Program-made: the position numbers and the translations under genes
In this document: in pieces, positions 16,697 through 25,609 of the stretch
Layout of the letters: each line of letters starts with the position of its first letter
Position numbering within the stretch: position 1 is the first letter of the stretch
Origin: Patescibacteria group bacterium
GTDB lineage: Bacteria; Patescibacteriota; Patescibacteriia; UBA10025; JAHIVO01
NCBI GenBank assembly: GCA_041649335.1
Contig: JBAZNF010000002.1
Coordinates: 1-60,657, forward strand
Reading direction: 5' to 3'
DNA: 60,657 nt
The notes under the pieces: model-generated
The model's input: only the letters and a program-made list of their open reading frames with translations
The model's database searches: none
Told to the model about the DNA's origin: nothing

Positions 16697-18319
16697 ATGG
16701 TTGAACTTTGGCGATCAATAACAAAAAAAGAATGGCGTCTGGTCATGGCACTGGCCGGTGTTATTATTATCGTGACGGCCATACCGTACCTGTACGGGTA
16801 TTTTACGACACCGGTCGGCATGGCCTATACGGGCGTTCACTATCTGACGCCGGGGGATATCAATGTCATGCTGTCCAATATTGAACAGGTGAAACAGGGG
16901 CATCTTATTTTCATCAATCCGTATACAGCCGAACCGCAGCACCGCTGGCTGGTCAATCCGTTGTGGCTGTCGATCGGGGCGATGGCAAAAATATTCAGCC
17001 TTCCCAACCTGCTGGCGTACCACATCGCGCGTTCGATCTGGATCGTGATTTTTTTCGTAGTCATGTATTTGTTCCTGATGTTCATGTTTTCTGACCGGCG
17101 AAAACGCCTGTGGATGATGGTCATCATTATCGCTTCATCCGGGCTTGGGCTTTTTTTCAATCCGTTCCTTTTTGACCTTACTAATTTATATGAGCATCCG
17201 ACAGATACGTGGGTGCCGGAAAGCATCACGTTTTTGACGTTGTACCATTCACCGCACCTGATCGCTTCGTTGACGCTGATCATCCTGGTTTTCCTGCTGA
17301 TGCTTCTGGCATTTGACACTAACCGGTGGCGCTATTCGATCGGTGCCGGCGTGTCCTGTTTTTTCCTCCTGTGGTTCCATCCGTTCAATGGCCCGACGAT
17401 TTTTTCCGTCCTGGGCGTATATATGCTGACCATGTTTTTCCGTTCGCGGAGAATCATCTGGTCATATGTGCGGCATTATGCCGTGCTCTGCGTATTTCCC
17501 ATTCCCATCGTCATATATATGTATATGATGAGCAAGTATGACTGGGTTATCCGCATGTGGAACCAGCAGAATGTCCTGCCTTCCCCCAGCGTGTGGATGT
17601 ACCTGATCGGGTACGGGCTCCTTATTCCGTTGGGTGTTTATGGCCTGTGGATAACCTGTAAAAAGCTTGATTCTAAAGGGGTTTTTATCATAGGGTGGCT
17701 CGCAACATCGGCGCTTCTGGTTTATTTCCCTATTTATTTTCAACGCCGGATGATTGAGGGGTTCCACATTCCTTTAGCGATACTGGCAGCCTTGGCATTG
17801 CTGGCCCTGGTTGACCGGTGGCGGGATCCGCGCCCCGGCAGCTGGCAACTGAAATTGAGCCTGCTTGTTGCTTTTTGCGCGATATTTCTGCCGCTGACCA
17901 ACATCCAGATCATGGGGCAGGATATTTTCAAGTACCAGACGAATAAGGAGTATCCGTATTATCTGCCCCAGACCGAGATAGAGTCGATGCAATGGCTGAA
18001 AGCGCATACGACGGATAGGGATATTATTTTTTCCACGTACGAGATCGGAAATTTCATCCCGGCTTATTCCGGCCGGGTCGTCTGGATCGGCCATGGGCCG
18101 CAGACCATCAACCTGGAGGAGAAATACATACAGAATGCCTGGTTCTGGTGGCAGGACGATATTAACGGGTCCAAGCGCCAGTGGCTGCATGACCAGCGCG
18201 TAACGTATCTCTGGTACGGTCCCAATGAAAAAAACGCCGGCGCATACGTGCCAGACACGAAAACATATTTGGAAAAAGTTTTCAGCAATTCAGACGTCAG
18301 CCTTTACCGCGTCCAATAA
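16697..18319 (+). CDS. polytopic membrane protein, putative GT-C-fold glycosyltransferase (3 of 3)
   Basis: 540 aa with many TM segments. The C-terminal soluble domain ends ..LEKVFSNSDVSLYRVQ, paralogous to the tail of the first gene. Confidence 0.55.
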   Translation: MVELWRSITKKEWRLVMALAGVIIIVTAIPYLYGYFTTPVGMAYTGVHYLTPGDINVMLSNIEQVKQGHLIFINPYTAEPQHRWLVNPLWLSIGAMAKIFSLPNLLAYHIARSIWIVIFFVVMYLFLMFMFSDRRKRLWMMVIIIASSGLGLFFNPFLFDLTNLYEHPTDTWVPESITFLTLYHSPHLIASLTLIILVFLLMLLAFDTNRWRYSIGAGVSCFFLLWFHPFNGPTIFSVLGVYMLTMFFRSRRIIWSYVRHYAVLCVFPIPIVIYMYMMSKYDWVIRMWNQQNVLPSPSVWMYLIGYGLLIPLGVYGLWITCKKLDSKGVFIIGWLATSALLVYFPIYFQRRMIEGFHIPLAILAALALLALVDRWRDPRPGSWQLKLSLLVAFCAIFLPLTNIQIMGQDIFKYQTNKEYPYYLPQTEIESMQWLKAHTTDRDIIFSTYEIGNFIPAYSGRVVWIGHGPQTINLEEKYIQNAWFWWQDDINGSKRQWLHDQRVTYLWYGPNEKNAGAYVPDTKTYLEKVFSNSDVSLYRVQ

Positions 18320-20289
18320 TCGATGGAGATGCCCGGCCCGACCGCCTGTTTTTTTGTGTAGACAATTTTTGCCGACCGCCATCCGTCCAGATCAAGGTAA
18401 CCCGCGGTCTCGACGGCTTCCAAATTGAGCTGACTATTTGACGTATGTACTGACGAGGGGACGGTAAGCCAGAAGTTTGTTGTGACATACGTACCGGCGG
18501 GCCAATCAAAAACCGGGAACAGTCCGTACCCAAACGGCAGTATTGTTTCAAATATATTTTTTCCGTTGTCGCCTGATACGGAAAATTCCAGATGAAAGTC
18601 GTCGGCCGCTGTTTGTGACAATCGCCAAACCAGAGAAAGGGAGATGTGGTTGGAGTCGATTGGCAGAGTGTTCATTTTTTTCCACCCGACGAATTCCAGT
18701 GTCGGGGTGATTTGTCGGTGCAGGGCGATGATGTCCGTCGGAGCGTCGGGTGAGACAGAATAAAGCGATAACGCGTCCGCCTGGCCTTTCGTGAACGTCA
18801 CAATAGAATCGTCCACCGATTCTATTACGAACCCGTTAGTGTCCAAGTACGCACGGATCCGTTCCGCCCCCCCAGCATATTGTTCGCTGTCCGAATATTG
18901 CAACTGGTAAATGATGAAATCGCGGGCATCCAAAATTATACGTTGGACCGACGTGGGTAATTCGTAGTCCTGTTCCGAATATTGTTTTTTCCCTAAAAAG
19001 GCGTAATTCAGCGAGTAAATGTGTTCGCGGGAGGAAAGCGGCGTCAGGAAATTATATCCGACGGCAACTGATTCATCAGGACTAGTCTGGTTAACGGATT
19101 GTTGTGCCGTGTGCGTGACGGTCGAATTCCACGGCGACTGGAATAACGAGCGGGCCATAGCAGTGATCGGGCTGATGATGGCGAACGAGTACACTATCGC
19201 CCCGATGATGATGACGCCATAGCGCCAACGATAGCGGAAAAATAAACGTTTTTTCGCTGTCTCAGGCTGGTTTGGCGCTATAAGGTAAGCGAGAGATATA
19301 ATGGCCGCGATAAATATGCCTGGCAGCAGGAGTGCCGTGTAATGCGTTTCCAGGACAACCGTCGGGTTAAGACCGGTCAGAAACAATTGAAGCGCGACCA
19401 AGAGCGTCAGCAGGAGCGCGCGCGGCTTCAGGAGATACAGTCCGGCCATCGGGAGGAGCAGCCCGCAGAGCAGCCAGAGATTGTTAAATGTGAAGAGGTG
19501 GGTAAGGATCAGCCACGGTTTCAGTGCTAGAGTTTTTATGGCCGAGCTGAAGCTGCCGCCCAGCCAGGGGTACATCAACAAAAATTTATAGGATCCGTAC
19601 CCGTTGAAGTAGCCGGTCAGCTGCATGGCGATGATAAACCACAGGCCGCCGGCGATGACCGGCGCGAGTATCCAGCGGAGCGGACGGCGGTCCAGGGCGG
19701 CCAGTGCCCCGAACATAATGACGGCCAGTGCCACGTCTTCACGCACCGTCAGGGCAAGAAGGGAGCACAACAGGAACGGAGTAAATTTTTTCTGGTCATA
19801 AAAATAGTAGGCGCTTAGCAGCAGGATAACGGCAAACGGCAGGAGGTGGAATTCGAAGAAGGCCATGTTCCAGAGAAAAGGGTTGAGCAGCCAGGCGGCG
19901 GCCATGGCCAGCGCGAAATGCGCCGGGAGGTATTTTTTTGCGATCAGGAACAGAGGCCAGGCGGCCAGGGTCAGCCCCAGGGCCTGGAGGATCAGTAGCG
20001 TGGCCGGCGACGGCTTCAGGGCATACAACGGAGCTAACGCCAGGATAAAAATTTCAAAATGATCGCCCAGATAGGAATGCGGATGGACACTGAACTGAAA
20101 CAGGCGTCCGTGGACGGTATTGTAGAAAACCTGGTTATAGATGCCCAAATCCATGGCGTTATAGCCAAAGTGCTGATATTTGACGATCAGTGCCCAGACC
20201 ATAACCGCCGAAACCAGGGTGATCAGGATGGCCAGAGACGTATAGGGGTGGCGGCCGAGCCAGGCGATAATTTTTTTCATTGTTGCCAT
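18304..20289 (-). CDS. DUF2079-family polytopic membrane protein with large C-terminal extracytoplasmic domain
   Basis: 661 aa. N-terminal ..KYQHFGYNAMDLGIYNQVFYNTVHGRLF.. resembles the DUF2079 signature. The 3' end overlaps the convergent GT-C gene by 16 nt. Confidence 0.6.
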   Translation of the reverse strand: MATMKKIIAWLGRHPYTSLAILITLVSAVMVWALIVKYQHFGYNAMDLGIYNQVFYNTVHGRLFQFSVHPHSYLGDHFEIFILALAPLYALKPSPATLLILQALGLTLAAWPLFLIAKKYLPAHFALAMAAAWLLNPFLWNMAFFEFHLLPFAVILLLSAYYFYDQKKFTPFLLCSLLALTVREDVALAVIMFGALAALDRRPLRWILAPVIAGGLWFIIAMQLTGYFNGYGSYKFLLMYPWLGGSFSSAIKTLALKPWLILTHLFTFNNLWLLCGLLLPMAGLYLLKPRALLLTLLVALQLFLTGLNPTVVLETHYTALLLPGIFIAAIISLAYLIAPNQPETAKKRLFFRYRWRYGVIIIGAIVYSFAIISPITAMARSLFQSPWNSTVTHTAQQSVNQTSPDESVAVGYNFLTPLSSREHIYSLNYAFLGKKQYSEQDYELPTSVQRIILDARDFIIYQLQYSDSEQYAGGAERIRAYLDTNGFVIESVDDSIVTFTKGQADALSLYSVSPDAPTDIIALHRQITPTLEFVGWKKMNTLPIDSNHISLSLVWRLSQTAADDFHLEFSVSGDNGKNIFETILPFGYGLFPVFDWPAGTYVTTNFWLTVPSSVHTSNSQLNLEAVETAGYLDLDGWRSAKIVYTKKQAVGPGISIDYWTR

Positions 20290-20315
20290 ACAGTCATTGT
20301 ATCTGAGCCGTGTCT

Positions 20316-20353
20316 GAAAAACAAACCCCCCACACCTGGTGTGATGTGGGGGG
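20316..20353 (-). terminator. intrinsic terminator after the distal pilin gene
   Basis: 9-bp G/C-rich stem ccccccaca / tgtgggggg. On the minus strand it is followed by TTTGTTTTTC. Confidence 0.75.
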
Positions 20354-20384
20354 AGAATATTTATTAACTACGTTAATAACGGAA

Positions 20385-20738
20385 TTAGGTCGTGACCTTG
20401 TTGGTCTGAGTGACGACGAAGATGACGATAGCCCAAGCCAGCAATATGACGATTAAACCGATGACAGCGGCGGAAATGATTTTTTTCGCGCCTGCTACCT
20501 TTTCTTCGTTGCCGCCGGCGGTCATCCATTGGAAACCACCGATCAAGATCATGATGACGGCGACGAGACCGAGAAAGCCGAGCACCCATTGCACGATCTT
20601 AATGACCGTTGATTCGAGGTCAGCCGTTCCCAGGCCTAACGTCGGGCCGAGGTTGGTTACGGTAACAGCGGAGGCTGCAAACGGGATGGCGACTGCCGCG
20701 ATAGTTAATAAACCGGCAAGAAATACTTTTTTGTTCAT
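20385..20738 (-). CDS. VirB2/TrbC-like (T4SS-type) pilin, candidate major subunit
   Basis: 117 aa. Signal peptide MNKKVFLAGLLTIAAVAIPFAASA. Then two hydrophobic helices separated by a short basic loop: LIGGFQWMTAGGNEEKVAGAKKIISAAVIGLIVILLAW. Confidence 0.7.
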   Translation of the reverse strand: MNKKVFLAGLLTIAAVAIPFAASAVTVTNLGPTLGLGTADLESTVIKIVQWVLGFLGLVAVIMILIGGFQWMTAGGNEEKVAGAKKIISAAVIGLIVILLAWAIVIFVVTQTNKVTT

Positions 20739-20814
20739 TCTATTCTCACCCCCTTCCGTTTAATAAAAGATTGATATTTATGCAATTATTTCAGTGAATT
20801 TCAGAACAATCAAA

Positions 20815-20843
20815 ATTATACCTTAATTCCCTGACTTTGTCAA
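20815..20843 (-). promoter_or_regulatory. perfect consensus sigma70 promoter for the distal pilin gene
   Basis: Minus strand reads TTGACA, 17 nt (aagtcagggaattaagg), TATAAT. The implied 5' UTR is about 70 nt and an SD-like GGGGGTGA precedes the ATG. Confidence 0.75.
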
Positions 20844-20850
20844 ACGCCCG

Positions 20851-21264
20851 CTACAGTTTTTTTTGGATTTCCTCGAAAATGAATTTCAAGACCGAATAGC
20901 TGAGCGTAATCACCAAAATACCCACGATGGCCCAGACCAGCGTGTCTTTGGCCTTTTTGACCATATTGGGGTTGCCGGCGGAAATCAGGAATTCAAACCC
21001 GCCCAAAATAACCATGAACAAGGCGAAGATGTCCACCGCCGCCAGCAATATCTGCAGGACGCGTAGCATGATTTTGATCAGATCGACATTTTTCCCGAGC
21101 GGGTTCGGCAGTGACGGGGTACCTGTGGTCGTGGTAGCGCCGGTATTGGTATTGCCCGTGTTAGTGGACTGGGCCTGTAGCGATACCGGAAACAGGAGTA
21201 CGGAGCCAGCCCATATGGCAGACAGGGCGATCACGGTCAGGATGAGCAAGGTGTTTTTTTTCAT
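20851..21264 (-). CDS. VirB2/TrbC-like pilin paralog with Thr/Asn-rich linker
   Basis: 137 aa. Signal/TM, then the low-complexity stretch STNTGNTNTGATTTTGT, then ILGGFEFLISAGNPNMVKKAKDTLVWAIVGILVITLSY (same helix-loop-helix as its neighbours). Confidence 0.65.
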   Translation of the reverse strand: MKKNTLLILTVIALSAIWAGSVLLFPVSLQAQSTNTGNTNTGATTTTGTPSLPNPLGKNVDLIKIMLRVLQILLAAVDIFALFMVILGGFEFLISAGNPNMVKKAKDTLVWAIVGILVITLSYSVLKFIFEEIQKKL

Positions 21265-21282
21265 ATAAAAAAGTCAATTATA

Positions 21283-23268
21283 TTACGGCAGAGGAGTATT
21301 ATTGACCAGGAGGTCGCAGGTGATAGAGGTCTGCACATTGTCGCAGGCGCGGTCATTCTCATAGAACGTGCCGCCATTCATACTGCAGTAAATTTCAGTG
21401 GACCATTGGGTGCAGGTTGTTAGGTCAATTTGCGGCGGTCCGGGGTCGATGATGTCTGTTTTGACGCAACACCCCTGGACACAGGCCCGCTGGCCATTGT
21501 TCGGGTCGACGACATTGATACAGCGGTCGCCAGGCCGGAAGGCAGTGACCGGGAATGTCGCACTGCATTTAGCGCGCGTCAATGGCTCGAAACAGTTGTA
21601 ATCGTTGTCCAACTCAACACAACAGCCACTACAGTCGCCGACGGTGGAGCAGGCTGCTCCGGACGAAAATGTTCCGCCAGCCAGGGTGCATTGAGCTTGA
21701 GTATAACTTTCATGGCACGTTAGATCATTGTTTGGATTAACACAGCAGCCGGTGACACACTGAGGGTCGGGTGGGCTTGAAGCGGCAGTGAAGGTGCCGG
21801 TGCAGGCGATCCGGGCTACCGGACTGACACAGGCGCCAGTAGTAGTATTCCGGCAGGTGCCGGTTTCACACTGTTGGCCGGCGTTTGTCGGGCAGGCGCC
21901 GCCAGGCCCGCCAAGTATCGTCTGGTTGTTTGGAGGTAGGCAGGTTTGTTGCGAGACCGCACTGCTGCAGGTGAGAGCATTTTGGTACAGACAGCATACC
22001 GGGGCGCATGACGTGTTAGCGGAACATGTGTTATTTATATCATAGGTGAGGTTGGCGCATGAGCCGTCGATATTTCCGTCCGTACAAGTTTCCTGGCAGC
22101 AGCCATCCGTACATGAAGTAAATTGTGAACAACTGATGTCATTATTGAATATCCCCCCGACTGTCGTGCAGTAGCCGGCGGTGTAGTTGTTGTAGCAGTT
22201 ATTATTTCCGCCTGGATCCTGGATGCAGCAGCCAGTCAGGCACAGGCCGAGGATATCTCTGGCCTCTTTGCATGTTTGGGGGACATAAATATTGCTGGTG
22301 CAATTAATTTTACTGTCACTGCAGCTGCTTTGGCCAATACAACAGCCGATAATGCATTCAGTTTCGTCCGTACAACTGACACCAGGTTTGAAAGTGCCGC
22401 CGCTCGGGCAGTTAGCCGAGGTCGTCGTGGTACAGGTATTTGGCTGGATACAGCAGCCGGTGCCGGTTTCGCTGGCCGTGCTGGTACCCTGGATGAGAGC
22501 GGGGTCGCAGTCCTGGCCCAGGAAATTACAGGCCGTATTGGAGTGGTAGGTGGTGGGCCAGTTGATACAGCCAGTTTTACTGTCCGGCCAGTAGCAGGTT
22601 TTATCCGTGGTGTCGTCGGGGACGCAGCAGCCGATGGTATAATTCTTGCAGACAGCCGGGTACTCAGAACAGAATTGGTTTTCACCCATGAATTGGACGC
22701 TGGCGCCGCCGTAGGTACCGCTGATCGCAGTGCAATCGGTTTGGGTCATTTCTTTGCAGCCGTAATCCTCTACATAGCAGCACCCGGCATTTGGTTGGTG
22801 CGGGTTGGCTACGCCGCCGCCCCACCATTCTTTTGAAAATGGCGTGCCATAATCCGGGAATATGTTAGTACTCCCGGTCAGGACGAATACGATAAAATTG
22901 CCGAACGCCCACGCCAGGAAGATGATAATAATGACGCCGACTACTACTGAGGTAATCATTTTTTTCCCCTGTTGGATCTTTTCCGGATTGCCGCCGGCCA
23001 TAATCAGGTTGAAGCCGGCCCAGATCATCATGATCATGGCCAGGTAAGGCAGGAGCTTCAGGGCGACCTGCGCCAGGTTGATGAACAGCTGGACAAATGA
23101 GTTCAGGTTGCATTCGGCATTTTTTTGGTCGCCTAAACATTCCGGGGGGATAATCTGGAATCCGCTGCTTGATTCCGCGGCCCGTGTTACGGCCGGGATA
23201 ACGAGTGCGGCAAGGGCAACCACTGTTATGGCCGTAAGGATAAGTCGTTTGTGGCGGAAGGTAGACAT
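21283..23268 (-). CDS. pilin-like N-terminal domain fused to ten tandem six-cysteine modules (putative surface stalk/adhesin)
   Basis: 661 aa. Signal peptide, then IWAGFNLIMAGGNPEKIQQGKKMITSVVVGVIIIIFLAW (pilin-like hairpin). From residue 163 there are ten CC-initiated Cys modules; I counted 66 Cys in total. Confidence 0.8.
   Translation of the reverse strand: MSTFRHKRLILTAITVVALAALVIPAVTRAAESSSGFQIIPPECLGDQKNAECNLNSFVQLFINLAQVALKLLPYLAMIMMIWAGFNLIMAGGNPEKIQQGKKMITSVVVGVIIIIFLAWAFGNFIVFVLTGSTNIFPDYGTPFSKEWWGGGVANPHQPNAGCCYVEDYGCKEMTQTDCTAISGTYGGASVQFMGENQFCSEYPAVCKNYTIGCCVPDDTTDKTCYWPDSKTGCINWPTTYHSNTACNFLGQDCDPALIQGTSTASETGTGCCIQPNTCTTTTSANCPSGGTFKPGVSCTDETECIIGCCIGQSSCSDSKINCTSNIYVPQTCKEARDILGLCLTGCCIQDPGGNNNCYNNYTAGYCTTVGGIFNNDISCSQFTSCTDGCCQETCTDGNIDGSCANLTYDINNTCSANTSCAPVCCLYQNALTCSSAVSQQTCLPPNNQTILGGPGGACPTNAGQQCETGTCRNTTTGACVSPVARIACTGTFTAASSPPDPQCVTGCCVNPNNDLTCHESYTQAQCTLAGGTFSSGAACSTVGDCSGCCVELDNDYNCFEPLTRAKCSATFPVTAFRPGDRCINVVDPNNGQRACVQGCCVKTDIIDPGPPQIDLTTCTQWSTEIYCSMNGGTFYENDRACDNVQTSITCDLLVNNTPLP
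21286..22782 (-). repeat. coding tandem repeat: ten CC-x-C-x-C-x-C-x-C modules of 35-83 aa
   Basis: CC doublets occur at GCCYVED, GCCVPDD, GCCIQPN, GCCIGQS, GCCIQDP, GCCQETC, VCCLYQN, GCCVNPN, GCCVELD and GCCVKTD. Nine modules have exactly 6 Cys and the seventh has 10. A GG(T/I)F motif recurs in the third loop. Confidence 0.85.
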
Positions 23269-23273
23269 GATAA

Positions 23274-24659
23274 TTAGTAGGTTTGTTGGATTTTTTGCGC
23301 GGCCGCATCCAGAGAGGTCTGGATGGCGTTCGGGTCTGCAGCGACCGTTTCAATCATGTCGGCGAATGCCTGCGCCGCGGAAACAGGGTCACGGCCGTGA
23401 TACCAGCTGGTGGCCGTCAGAGCCTGCTGGGCCAGGATGCTCAGGTCCTGTTCTTTGAGCTGGTCGCTGAGGATGGAGCGGAGGACGCTGGTCTGGCTGG
23501 TCGCTTTCGTGTAGATGGCCGCCATTTTCTTGTCGGCCGCGAACTGCAGGAAATTCCAGGCCACGGCAGAATTTTTTGTCTTTTTTGATACCGTAAAGAC
23601 ATTATAGCTGGCGAAATTCACTTCATTTTCCAGGTCAACCTGGGGCAGCGGCGCGTACGCATAATCGATGCCGCGGTTCTTTGACTTGATGTCAGCTTCC
23701 TGGCTTTTATACCCGAAAAACAAGGCTAATTTCCCTTCCGCAAAATAATCCAGGGCATTGGGCATGGCCGCGTTCCAGGTGTAGGTGGTTTTATTGGGGC
23801 TGGTAAAATCAGTATAAAAACGCAACGCCTGGGCGCCGGGAATATATGCGGTGTCATTGACTGACGGCTGGTTGAATGAAACTTTTTCTCCGGAGGTCAT
23901 CTGCGTGCCGTTTTGCAGCATCAGAACGGTAACGATATCAATGGCATTGGGGATGTTTTCGTAGGTCCCGAGGGCGGCGCCGGCCCTGACGATATTGTTC
24001 TGGTCATCCAGGACGGTCAGGCGCGGGATAACGGTGGCGAATTCGGCCCAGGTCCGTGGCGGATCGATGATGTGGGCCTGGTTGAGGAGGTCCCGGTTGT
24101 AGTACATGACCAGGGTATTGACGCTCAGCGGCAGGCCGTATATTTTTCCGTCGAAAATGATGTCGTTATAAACGGTATCGATGTAATTTCGTTTGATGTC
24201 CGCTGACGTCAATGAAGTGGTGGGCGTGGCGGTAATTGACGTGTCAGTTTTGAATAATGTTTTTTTGGTGGTGTAGGTATAGACTGTGGTCGATTTTGGA
24301 AGCGGCGTAATGAAATCAGCCCGGTACTTGTTCAGTCCGGTATTGGGGATGGCATAAATGTCCGGACCCGTGTCAGTGGCCCAGCCGTTGAGGAGGGCGT
24401 CGGCATATTCTTCCGGACGTTTTTTCACGTATTTCAGCTTAACGTAGGGATGTGCCTTGCGGTAGGCGCTGAAGATTGCCGAGAGGTCAGAGGTCTCGTC
24501 CCAGACTCCCCACACCGTCAGACTGACTGATTTCGGGGGCGGCGTTCCTTTCGGTCCGAAGATGATAAAAATGACCCCTCCGATGATCAGCGCGATACTG
24601 CCGAGGATGATTAGGATAAAGACTTTTGAAACGCCGAGGCGTCGTTGTCCCACGTGCAT
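23274..24659 (-). CDS. membrane-anchored extracellular solute-binding protein (family 1, sugar-type)
   Basis: 461 aa. N-terminal TM anchor (VFILIILGSIALIIGGVIFIIF), then LTVWGVWDETSDLSAIFSAYRKAHPYVKLKYV typical of ABC substrate-binding proteins. No permease or ATPase genes are adjacent. Confidence 0.75.
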   Translation of the reverse strand: MHVGQRRLGVSKVFILIILGSIALIIGGVIFIIFGPKGTPPPKSVSLTVWGVWDETSDLSAIFSAYRKAHPYVKLKYVKKRPEEYADALLNGWATDTGPDIYAIPNTGLNKYRADFITPLPKSTTVYTYTTKKTLFKTDTSITATPTTSLTSADIKRNYIDTVYNDIIFDGKIYGLPLSVNTLVMYYNRDLLNQAHIIDPPRTWAEFATVIPRLTVLDDQNNIVRAGAALGTYENIPNAIDIVTVLMLQNGTQMTSGEKVSFNQPSVNDTAYIPGAQALRFYTDFTSPNKTTYTWNAAMPNALDYFAEGKLALFFGYKSQEADIKSKNRGIDYAYAPLPQVDLENEVNFASYNVFTVSKKTKNSAVAWNFLQFAADKKMAAIYTKATSQTSVLRSILSDQLKEQDLSILAQQALTATSWYHGRDPVSAAQAFADMIETVAADPNAIQTSLDAAAQKIQQTY

Positions 24660-24666
24660 GGTTGGG

Positions 24667-25557
24667 TTACAAATGAAGCGACTTTAAATACTCCCGGAAT
24701 GGTTCAGCCAGGTCTTTTCTGGATAAGGCGAATTCAACATTCGCCTTGAGGTATTCCAGCTTATTGCCGGTATCATAATATTTGCTGTTTTTAATTTCGC
24801 ACGCATAGATGGGCTCGCGGGTCATCAGGTCCTTAATGGCGTCCACCAGCCAGAGTTCACCGTCTTTGCCCGGCTGCAGGTTGCGTAATGACGGGATGAT
24901 GCCCGGCGTCAGGATATATGCGCCATGTGTGGCCAGGTTTGACGGCGCTTCCTCCGGTTTCGGTTTTTCGACCAGCGACTTAATAGTAAAAACGTTTTTT
25001 TCGCCCGGTATCGGCTCAATGTCGGCAATGCCATATTTTGATACATCTTTTTTATTGGGAATGCGCACGGCGCTGATGACCGAATGGCCGTATTTTTCGT
25101 ATACGTCCATCATCTGTTTGAGCCGCGGCGGGTCGCTGTGGAAGAATTCGTCGCCCCATAAAACTGCGAACGGTTCGTGCTCGACCAGGTGCCGGGCGGA
25201 AATGACCGGCGTAGCGTTACCGTATGCGCCTTTTTGGCGGATATAAATGAAATTGGCCAGCTCCGGAATACGCCGGATTTCCTTGAGCATTTCCATTTTA
25301 CCGGATGCTTCCAATTGCCGTTCCAATTCGAGCGAATAGTCAAAATGGTCTTCCAGGGAGCGTTTCTGCCAGCTAGTGACGATAATAATATCCTTGATGC
25401 CTGCGGAAACAGCCTCTTCTACGACGAACTGGATGACTGGTTTATCGATGATGGGCAGCATTTCTTTCGGCTGGGCTTTTGTCACCGGCAAAAAACGCGT
25501 CCCGAATCCGGCGGCCGGGATCACAACTTTCGTAATTTTTGGGAATGAATTTTTCAT
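24667..25557 (-). CDS. galU: UTP--glucose-1-phosphate uridylyltransferase
   Basis: 296 aa. KVVIPAAGFGTRFLPVTKAQPKEMLPIIDKPVIQFVVEEA is the GalU signature. Confidence 0.92.
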   Translation of the reverse strand: MKNSFPKITKVVIPAAGFGTRFLPVTKAQPKEMLPIIDKPVIQFVVEEAVSAGIKDIIIVTSWQKRSLEDHFDYSLELERQLEASGKMEMLKEIRRIPELANFIYIRQKGAYGNATPVISARHLVEHEPFAVLWGDEFFHSDPPRLKQMMDVYEKYGHSVISAVRIPNKKDVSKYGIADIEPIPGEKNVFTIKSLVEKPKPEEAPSNLATHGAYILTPGIIPSLRNLQPGKDGELWLVDAIKDLMTREPIYACEIKNSKYYDTGNKLEYLKANVEFALSRKDLAEPFREYLKSLHL

Positions 25558-25580: not shown

Positions 25581-25609
25581 ATTATATCATAAAACGTCTA
25601 TTTTGTAAA
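25581..25609 (-). promoter_or_regulatory. promoter candidate for the galU-SBP-Cys-module-pilin operon
   Basis: Minus strand reads TTTACA, 17 nt, TATAAT with a TG extension (TGATATAAT). The -10 ends 24 nt before the galU ATG. Confidence 0.55.

Follow-up and report, generated by a model that had tools for sequence, protein, structure and literature searches.

The 60,657-nucleotide stretch of DNA analyzed here (the window) covers positions 1 to 60,657 of contig JBAZNF010000002.1, from a Patescibacteria genome of 1.02 Mb in 40 contigs that is 83% complete; in our numbering it is contig C2. It carries a minus-strand row of genes that includes three consecutive genes for proteins sharing a helical hairpin: a 661-aa protein with a Cys-rich ectodomain, a 137-aa protein (type B) and a 117-aa protein (type A). 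We consider it probable that this locus is the pilin module of a type IV secretion system (T4SS), made up of an autonomously and strongly expressed core pilin, the 117-aa protein, together with minor hairpin proteins. The T4SS would be the chromosomal, monoderm-type (MPF-FATA-like) system that is common to nearly all Patescibacteria. Four kinds of observation carry this conclusion: the family to which the proteins belong, the expression signals of the 117-aa gene and their conservation, the presence of secretion machinery in the genome, and the linkage of homologous arrays to VirB4 in other families. VirB2-like pilins of family PF18895 and their tandem arrays are already known in Patescibacteria, and the window locus refines that known system.

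All three proteins score above the gathering cutoff of 26.6 bits for the Pfam family PF18895 (T4SS_pilin), the 661-aa protein through its N-terminus (Table 1), and the same model was matched by all 31 aligned orthologues of the 117-aa protein. A preliminary description of this DNA, made from its letters, had called the two small proteins VirB2/TrbC-like pilins and had named assignment to a non-pilin family by profile searches as an outcome that would speak against this. No such assignment occurred; membership in a T4SS-type pilin family stands, although direct homology to TrbC/VirB2 could not be demonstrated by sequence, as discussed below. Both small open reading frames were recovered in our scan, and the design that they were said to share with the large Cys-rich protein is borne out by the hairpin and PF18895 match in each. 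The 117-aa protein is 28% identical to the 137-aa protein over 75 residues (E 4e-13) and 33% identical to the 661-aa N-terminus (E 9e-11), and the three consecutive hairpin genes, at 28-33% identity, form a tandem array. Related loci contain from 3 to more than 10 pilin copies, and the present genome encodes eight PF18895 domains in all.

An AlphaFold2 model of the 117-aa protein contains helices at residues 3-25 (the signal peptide), 38-73 and 78-116, with a mean pLDDT of 79 and values of 80-94 in the hairpin. The Sec signal peptide would be cleaved between ASA and VTV, a site called by eye from the AxA pattern, and the loop GGNEEK joins the two helices. In the orthologue alignment the motif GGF.W…GGNEEK…KK is kept and 27 columns are invariant. 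Database searches returned 809 homologues, many of them about 117 aa long and 65-96% identical, and several of these carry the NCBI annotation "pilin [Patescibacteria group bacterium]". Comparison of the gene products with those of the closest relatives gives identities of 90-91% for the 117-aa pilin, 84-91% for GalU, 75-76% for the 137-aa protein, 71-74% for the solute-binding protein (SBP) encoded behind galU, 52-58% for the DUF2079 protein encoded beyond the last pilin and 48-56% for the Cys-rich 661-aa protein. Conservation of the 117-aa pilin therefore equals that of GalU. A type IV pilin was considered and rejected: the N-termini are of the Sec type (MNKKVFLAG…ASA, then V) and not class III signal peptides of the kind processed by PilD (G, then F/M-T-L-I-E). 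The genuine PilA-like gene of this genome lies on contig C25 (MNKKGFTLIELLVV).

The 137-aa protein consists of a signal peptide, a Thr/Asn linker, a conserved PSLPNPLG segment and the hairpin. The preliminary description had called it the Thr/Asn-linker paralog. That this linker defines the paralog had to be abandoned: in successive relatives the linker of the orthologues measures 17, 15, 9, 8 and 0 residues and is thus a variable insert that is absent from slightly more distant orthologues, whereas the motif P(S/T)LPNPLG marks the mature N-terminus. On the ortholog alignment, the 137-aa protein is a second, distinct and separately conserved pilin type, in which the Thr/Asn linker is a lineage-specific insert.

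An exact sigma-70 consensus promoter had been remarked between the two small pilin genes, and a promoter scan located it with a score of 12/12 (Table 1). It begins 5 nt past the 137-aa stop codon and stops 76 nt short of the 117-aa ATG, with a predicted transcription start near position 20808. Across the whole genome there are 4 sites that match the consensus at 12/12 and 85 at 11/12, compared with 0.35 and 14.1 expected from first-order Markov random genomes, a 6- to 11-fold excess. The 17-nt spacer is present in 56 of these 89 sites, and the majority lie 6-110 nt upstream of gene starts. The genes behind them, identified by eye from their N-terminal sequences, include rpsO-, groES-, clpP-, rpmF- and type IV pilin-like genes, and there is also a small PF18895 paralog on contig C17. 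This enrichment implies that the organism uses the canonical sigma-70 consensus and that the 117-aa site is among its four best promoters.

Alignment of the spacer with those of six related loci, in which the 117-aa pilin is 72-91% identical, provides a comparative footprint. Conservation is confined to the -35 and -10 hexamers, the Shine-Dalgarno (SD) core AAGGGGGTGA and the terminator, and the remaining spacer and leader have diverged. The promoter matches the consensus at 12/12 in four of these loci and at 11/12 in the other two, and is placed 73-92 nt before the ATG. An Rfam scan of positions 20200-21400 gave only noise, which implies that the 70-nt leader holds no known riboswitch or small RNA. 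The internal promoter is very unlikely to be due to chance, because consensus sites are enriched genome-wide and because the site is retained, together with the SD sequence and the terminator, in six related loci. The same considerations bear on the proposal that the internal promoter is fortuitous or silent and that the one ahead of galU drives equal expression of all the pilin genes. In support of that proposal, consensus scans are not functional evidence, and a lenient scan of the 8-kb region gave no excess of promoters (6 sites compared with 7.6 in shuffles). However, the number of perfect sites in the genome, the retention of this site at nearly constant distance in a diverged spacer and its coupling to the other two signals make a silent promoter highly improbable.

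The second signal is the SD sequence, which is 10 nt long and is unchanged in its core in 7 aligned loci; the 3' end of the 16S rRNA is canonical (GGATCACCTCCTTTCT). No SD sequence was seen upstream of the galU, SBP, 661-aa, 137-aa or DUF2079 genes. Among 1014 crude gene models only 8 have an SD match of at least 9 nt and 76% have one of 5 nt or less, which places the 117-aa gene within the top ~1%. The set with at least 9 nt includes the C25 type IV major pilin and a copy of the 117-aa pilin on contig C3. The third signal is an intrinsic terminator, described earlier as a 9-bp stem followed by a T-run. The 9 bp proved to be the contiguous Watson-Crick core of a stem of 11 pairs, 8 of them G-C, which folds at -21.9 kcal/mol and is followed by the tail TTTGTTTTT. 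At the same position six related loci have stems that differ in sequence, with energies of -20 to -28 kcal/mol, followed by an invariant TTTGTTTT tail, and compensatory changes are found in 4 of the 9 consensus pairs. The 117-aa gene is thus enclosed in a unit with a sigma-70 consensus promoter upstream and a GC hairpin plus U-run downstream, both conserved in orthologous loci. The promoter, the SD sequence and the terminator are three independent signals that point to high expression of the 117-aa protein. Contigs C3 and C17 encode small pilin paralogs whose genes likewise bear strong expression signals.

These features suggest how the locus may be expressed. Successive gaps of only 7, 5 and 18 nt separate galU, SBP and the genes for the 661-aa and 137-aa proteins, a spacer of 112 nt comes before the 117-aa gene, and ahead of galU there is an 11/12 promoter whose position is also occupied in three related loci. 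This tight packing behind a single site agrees with the earlier suggestion that the other hairpin genes are read from an upstream operon promoter. Transcription from this site would yield low to moderate amounts of the hairpin-anchored, Cys-rich surface protein and of the type B pilin, while the type A gene would be read both from the operon transcript and from its own consensus promoter. With that promoter, one of the strongest ribosome-binding sites of the genome and a terminator, we propose that the 117-aa protein is made in excess. It is plausible that the excess is large and that this protein is the major subunit; the relative abundance of the proteins, their polymerization and their major and minor roles are inferred from the sequence features described above. 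After export by Sec and cleavage of the signal peptide, each protein would form a helix-loop-helix hairpin in the membrane, with its two ends on the outside and its short GGN-E-K…KK loop directed towards the cytoplasm. Type A would be the bulk subunit of a polymer or membrane assembly, built by a VirB3/TrsD/VirB4/VirB6-like machine, and hairpin proteins that bear passengers, such as the 661-aa Cys-module protein and an Ig-rich protein of 3167 aa encoded on contig C1, would join or dock as minor components.

The preliminary description had regarded the assembly machinery as unknown after finding no VirB4, VirB6 or VirD4 in the window. We agree on the window; elsewhere in the genome, where it had advised a search, much of the machinery is present. 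A row of genes on contig C10 encodes a PrgI/VirB3-like protein, a 228-aa TraC_N-like (TrsD-like) protein and a VirB4-like ATPase (P-loop_TraG, 1.4e-28). The row also includes genes for a bitopic 200-aa protein, a 339-aa Cys-rich protein with an internal pilin domain, a beta-propeller and a fusion of a pilin with an SLT (VirB1-like) domain. It adjoins radA, an adjacency that has been published for class ABY1. A VirB6-like protein of 1786 aa with at least 9 transmembrane segments is encoded on contig C16. The Pfam TrbL/VirB6 model matched nothing in this genome, and the gene was reached only through relatives, by tblastn (1e-19) with an 871-aa protein that precedes PrgI in genome G065 and itself scores 25.6 bits against TrbL/VirB6 (cutoff 25.9). 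The genome therefore encodes a T4SS of the Patescibacteria VirB4 type. Another of the four 12/12 promoters lies in the same region (C16:6751-21978), where it precedes genes for a 301-aa protein, a 2956-aa protein (CBM_4_9) and the VirB6-like protein, so that two of the four perfect promoters of the genome drive T4SS-related genes.

The window array and the VirB4 gene are on different contigs, and their relationship was sought in a survey of 301 sampled Patescibacteria genomes. Homologues of the 117-aa pilin are present in 278, usually in several copies, a VirB4 orthologue that is 50-75% identical is present in 290, and a single-copy SBP orthologue is present in 227. Because pilin and VirB4 are both near-universal, their presence or absence is uninformative, and it is gene order that bears on the question. 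Coordinate lists were cross-read by hand. In 49 of the 50 genomes for which both coordinates were available, representing at least 25 families, the SBP gene lies within 6 kb upstream of a pilin match on the same strand, and for 13 genomes, belonging to 6 families, VirB4 follows it on the same strand at a distance of 3-12 kb. In most related loci examined, galU precedes SBP. The pilin array adjoins VirB4 in G006, G065, G150 and G168. G065 has on one strand and within 15 kb the order galU, SBP, 8 pilin genes, a PD40 propeller, VirB6-like, PrgI, TrsD-like and VirB4; G006 matches this from SBP onward, its galU being beyond the region examined. The joining of a homologous array to VirB4 in other families indicates that the window operon is the pilin module of a T4SS supercluster. 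In family f20 (G150 and G168), which has no SBP orthologue, the array is found ~3.6 kb upstream of VirB6-like, PrgI, TrsD and VirB4. As this array stands beside the T4SS without SBP, SBP appears to be widespread but dispensable for the link.

Within the class of the window the arrangement is different. Records of this class are labelled Kerfeld-, Magasanik-, Falkow- or Jacksonbacteria, and we take the class (Kerfeld-/Magasanik-/Falkowbacteria) to be ABY1-like. Its gene order is galU, SBP, the large hairpin protein, type B, type A (from 1 to more than 10 copies) and DUF2079, followed by convergent glycosyltransferase-like (GT-C-like) genes; DUF2079 follows the last pilin in 14 related loci. The order suggests that in this class the pilin module is separated from the ATPase module and set beside envelope glycosyltransferase-like genes. 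DUF2079 is absent from the array-VirB4 clusters of G065 and G006, which implies that its adjacency is specific to the class and that the link to the T4SS is either ancestral or widespread.

A number of results weigh against assigning the locus to a T4SS, and the first of these concern linkage and machinery. Of 15 genomes from the class of the window, none had an array near VirB4, and in the present genome the two lie on C2 and C10. Three genomes that are 99-100% complete (G117, G058 and G135) have 6-9 pilin matches and no VirB4 match at E<=1e-10, which reflects either a failure of detection or lineages that keep pilins without the ATPase. VirD4, which the preliminary description had also sought, was not found in the genome; a weak AAA_10 match on contig C5 was considered as a coupling protein and rejected as FtsK. 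An alternative suggested by the first of these results is that galU, SBP, the pilins and the DUF2079/GT-C genes form a self-contained organelle, of the envelope or for glycosylation, that functions without the T4SS and in which the hairpin proteins are glycosylated and the DUF2079 and GT-C proteins are the modifiers. The constant flanking of the array by DUF2079 and GT-C-like genes in this class, never near VirB4, is in keeping with this idea, as are Thr-rich exposed segments in the 137-aa linker and in the C-terminal TQTNKVTT of the 117-aa protein. There is also a precedent in Pseudomonas aeruginosa, where a major type IV pilin gene is followed by the gene for its membrane glycosyltransferase (pilA-tfpO and pilA-tfpW). 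The window resembles it in that a pilin gene with strong predicted expression is followed by a gene for a large polytopic membrane protein, here DUF2079, but the pilin is of another class, the DUF2079 adjacency is confined to the window's class, and a role in glycosylation is putative. The alternative is hard to reconcile with the SBP gene that heads the arrays, which in six other families lies co-directional and close upstream of VirB4, or with the contiguous arrays of G065 and G006, where VirB6-like, PrgI, TrsD and VirB4 follow and DUF2079 is missing. We therefore regard a T4SS-independent organelle as improbable.

A second group of adverse results concerns descent from VirB2. The 117-aa protein had no match to PF04956 at E<=1, and only 3 of the 31 orthologues had one, the best with E 2.1e-5. 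When the pilin profile was compared by hhalign with the TraM family of IncN plasmid R46, which served as the genuine VirB2 reference, the probability was 2.6% and only the signal peptides were aligned; for A1 against a single TraM sequence the value was 27.8%. The profile of the 31 orthologues matched no PDB sequence at E<=10, and a Foldseek search of the PDB with the AlphaFold2 model yielded nothing beyond generic helical hairpins (F-BAR and the c subunit of ATP synthase), none of them at E<=0.001, an outcome that does not discriminate between folds. A tblastn search of 72,556 plasmids with a PF04956-positive orthologue gave no match. True homology to TrbC/VirB2 cannot be demonstrated here by sequence, so that the label VirB2-like rests on architecture and gene context. 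In these respects there is a likeness: TrbC/VirB2 pilins (PF04956; TraM of R46/pKM101) are small, have a Sec signal peptide and a short charged loop between two hydrophobic helices, and in some lineages are encoded with VirB3-, VirB4- and VirB6-type genes. They differ in the absence of significant sequence or profile similarity, in that the organism here is monoderm, and in that the mature 117-aa protein has ~93 aa. Of the preliminary interpretation, the family and the expression architecture hold. The machinery need no longer be called unknown, the 137-aa protein is more than a variable paralog, and direct homology to TrbC/VirB2 could not be demonstrated by sequence.

The last group of adverse results asks whether there is a pilus at all. 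The literature searched contained no report of an observed PF18895 filament, and the thin filaments of one cultured Candidate Phyla Radiation (CPR) bacterium are unrelated Ig-fold Pam pili (PMC13278184). Further, the C10 fusion of a hairpin to a lytic transglycosylase is more in keeping with a membrane anchor than with a fibre subunit. The PF18895 hairpin may instead be an anchor or docking module, in which case the 117-aa protein would form an integral-membrane ring, lattice or platform and there would be no extracellular pilus. Besides the SLT fusion and the Pam pili, this is consistent with the hairpin being internal in the 339-aa Cys-rich protein, within the T4SS cluster, and carried also on the 661-aa and 3167-aa ectodomain proteins, with the yield of nothing but generic hairpins from fold and profile searches, and with the general lack of a pilus in Gram-positive T4SSs (PMC10633639; PMC12102498). 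On the other hand, extreme conservation and top-tier expression signals, like those of the type IV major pilin in this genome, fit a dominant structural subunit; amplification in related lineages, to more than 10 copies in tandem, resembles pilin or antigen arrays; and a recent review holds a pilus to be possible, as a unique feature among monoderm T4SSs (PMC12857230). An anchor without a pilus is a real possibility, though we think it doubtful, and a pilin module with a strongly expressed core pilin is the explanation that we favor.

Comparison with other systems places this module more closely. The nearest relatives are the VirB2-like arrays of Patescibacteria, exemplified by the pilin series in the T4SS cluster of Southlakia epibionticum ML1 and by the "VirB2 arrays" of Quiñonero-Coronel et al. 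2025. Arrays of 2-11 genes have been reported in 383 assemblies, with pilins near virB4 in 1135 of 1948 (PMC12102498), so that adjacency to virB4 is not obligatory among published cases either. Shared features are the phylum, the PF18895 family with its signal peptide-helix-loop-helix design, divergent paralogs in tandem (28% identical here, against a published mean of 25%), and an MPF-FATA-like VirB4 machinery in a genome where relaxase and coupling protein were not found. As to differences, the window array is on another contig than VirB4, behind galU-SBP and ahead of DUF2079/GT-C; its members belong to fixed orthologous types (a Cys-rich fusion, type B and type A); and its type A gene has its own conserved promoter, SD sequence and terminator. 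Our search of the published accounts of VirB2 arrays and of the S. epibionticum T4SS revealed neither these points nor any mention of galU, solute-binding proteins or promoters. The nearest NCBIfam model is that of the pilin-like conjugal transfer protein Mbov_0395/MMCAP2_0565 (NF045849) of Mycoplasma integrative and conjugative elements, a small protein with two helices from a conjugation system of the wall-less or monoderm MPF-FATA type; residues 42-109 of the 117-aa protein match the model with 33.4 bits (E 2.6e-8), under its cutoff of 40. Those proteins are encoded on mobile elements, whereas the window pilin is a chromosomal core gene. With respect to expression, a parallel is offered by the pap operon of Escherichia coli, in which the major subunit gene papA is expressed differentially from the minor subunits. 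There, as proposed here, one subunit gene flanked by extra expression signals and a terminator is made in excess; here, however, the putative major gene comes last instead of first, what it gains is a promoter and not mRNA processing, and the two kinds of pilus are unrelated in their chemistry.

In S. epibionticum, the sole genetically tested Patescibacterium, epibiotic growth requires the T4SS and its pilin series, the pilins concerned being those within the T4SS cluster (PMC10633639). As the 117-aa type is near-invariant and has conserved strong signals, we put it forward as the bulk subunit and as the target of choice for structural work; candidate minor subunits are the second small pilin type and the ectodomain proteins anchored by a hairpin. 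The SBP-headed arrays tie the otherwise "orphan" arrays of the window's class to the T4SS and hint at a sugar-related step. A more ambitious possibility combines these elements. The PF18895 hairpin may be a polymerizing handle, such that the abundant 117-aa protein forms a T4SS-dependent fibre or sheath into which hairpin-borne adhesins are copolymerized, decorated with sugars and used for epibiotic contact with a host. The displayed adhesins would include the 661-aa and the Ig-rich 3167-aa proteins and, in sister genomes, pairs of ~650-aa and 2,200-3,800-aa proteins; the galU-SBP head genes and, in the window's class, DUF2079/GT-C would supply sugars and attach them to the Thr-rich segments. 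Taken jointly these proposals are unlikely to hold, but if true they would describe a new type of decorated conjugation-type pilus.

Table 1. Coordinates of the features of the pilin locus in the window.
Feature	Position	Strand	Basis and remarks
Promoter upstream of the operon, TTTACA-17-TATAAT with TG extension	25581-25609	minus	11/12; 23 nt ahead of galU ATG
galU (UTP-glucose-1-phosphate uridylyltransferase), operon gene 1	24667-25557	minus	TIGR01099 321 bits, under cutoff 326.8
SBP, membrane-anchored carbohydrate-type solute-binding protein	23274-24659	minus	Pfam SBP_bac_6, NCBIfam GanS/MalE-like matches
661-aa protein, PF18895 hairpin (residues ~61-126) plus Cys-rich repeat ectodomain	21283-23268	minus	PF18895 31.5 bits
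137-aa type B pilin	20851-21264	minus	PF18895 28.8 bits
Internal sigma-70 consensus promoter, TTGACA-17-TATAAT	20815-20843	minus	12/12; promoter scan
Shine-Dalgarno sequence AAGGGGGTGA, 10 nt	20746-20755	minus	7 nt before 117-aa ATG; sequence and alignment
117-aa type A core pilin	20385-20738	minus	PF18895 49.2 bits
Intrinsic terminator	stem 20326-20353, T-run 20316-20325	minus	starts 31 nt past 117-aa stop
DUF2079 polytopic membrane protein, directly downstream of terminator	18304-20289	minus	PF09852 183.6 bits

For galU, loci orthologous to this region were matched by the Pfam model NTP_transferase. A literature search on DUF2079 found no papers. On the minus strand between 20289 and 20325, a -10-like TACAAT is located 6 nt ahead of the first ATG of DUF2079; the TTTGTTTT tail of the terminator provides a TTG at the -35 distance from it, and CTCAGATAC is retained in the closest relatives. 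The DUF2079 transcript may be leaderless or re-initiating.

Several further hairpin proteins were encountered. The 3167-aa protein on C1 (C1:58097-67600) begins with a PF18895 hairpin of ~120 residues, which scores 48.4 bits and shares 68% identity with the 117-aa pilin; it continues with numerous Ig-like domains (Big_5, Big_7, He_PIG, Big_13) and looks like a giant adhesin on a core-pilin handle. At C3:12009-12362 the 117-aa pilin is encoded a second time, as a stand-alone copy of 77% identity that has a 9-nt SD sequence, its own terminator, a 10/12 promoter ~240 nt upstream and, in its leader, a hydrophobic mini-ORF of ~30 codons (MSLSGGGVFVLILLIAFGAFFYFYTKKKF). In at least 9 sister genomes of the same class, adjacent genes encode a hairpin-anchored pair of ~620-760 aa and 2,200-3,800 aa (for example G158:C7:2840/4870, G192:C1:333002/334998, G208:C4:79908/81696 and G281:C15:118667/116636); this pair is a conserved two-gene module. 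Public records of metagenome-assembled genomes that contain the window's locus are in some cases titled "uncultured Gammaproteobacteria bacterium" (e.g. CAZVMV010000002.1, OZ246405.1), probably through mislabelled taxonomy. Finally, PF18895 was matched above cutoff in Haloferax volcanii, a control genome, which fits the occurrence of small pilin-like proteins in MPF-FATA-type (Firmicutes/Actinobacteria/Tenericutes/Archaea) systems outside the CPR.

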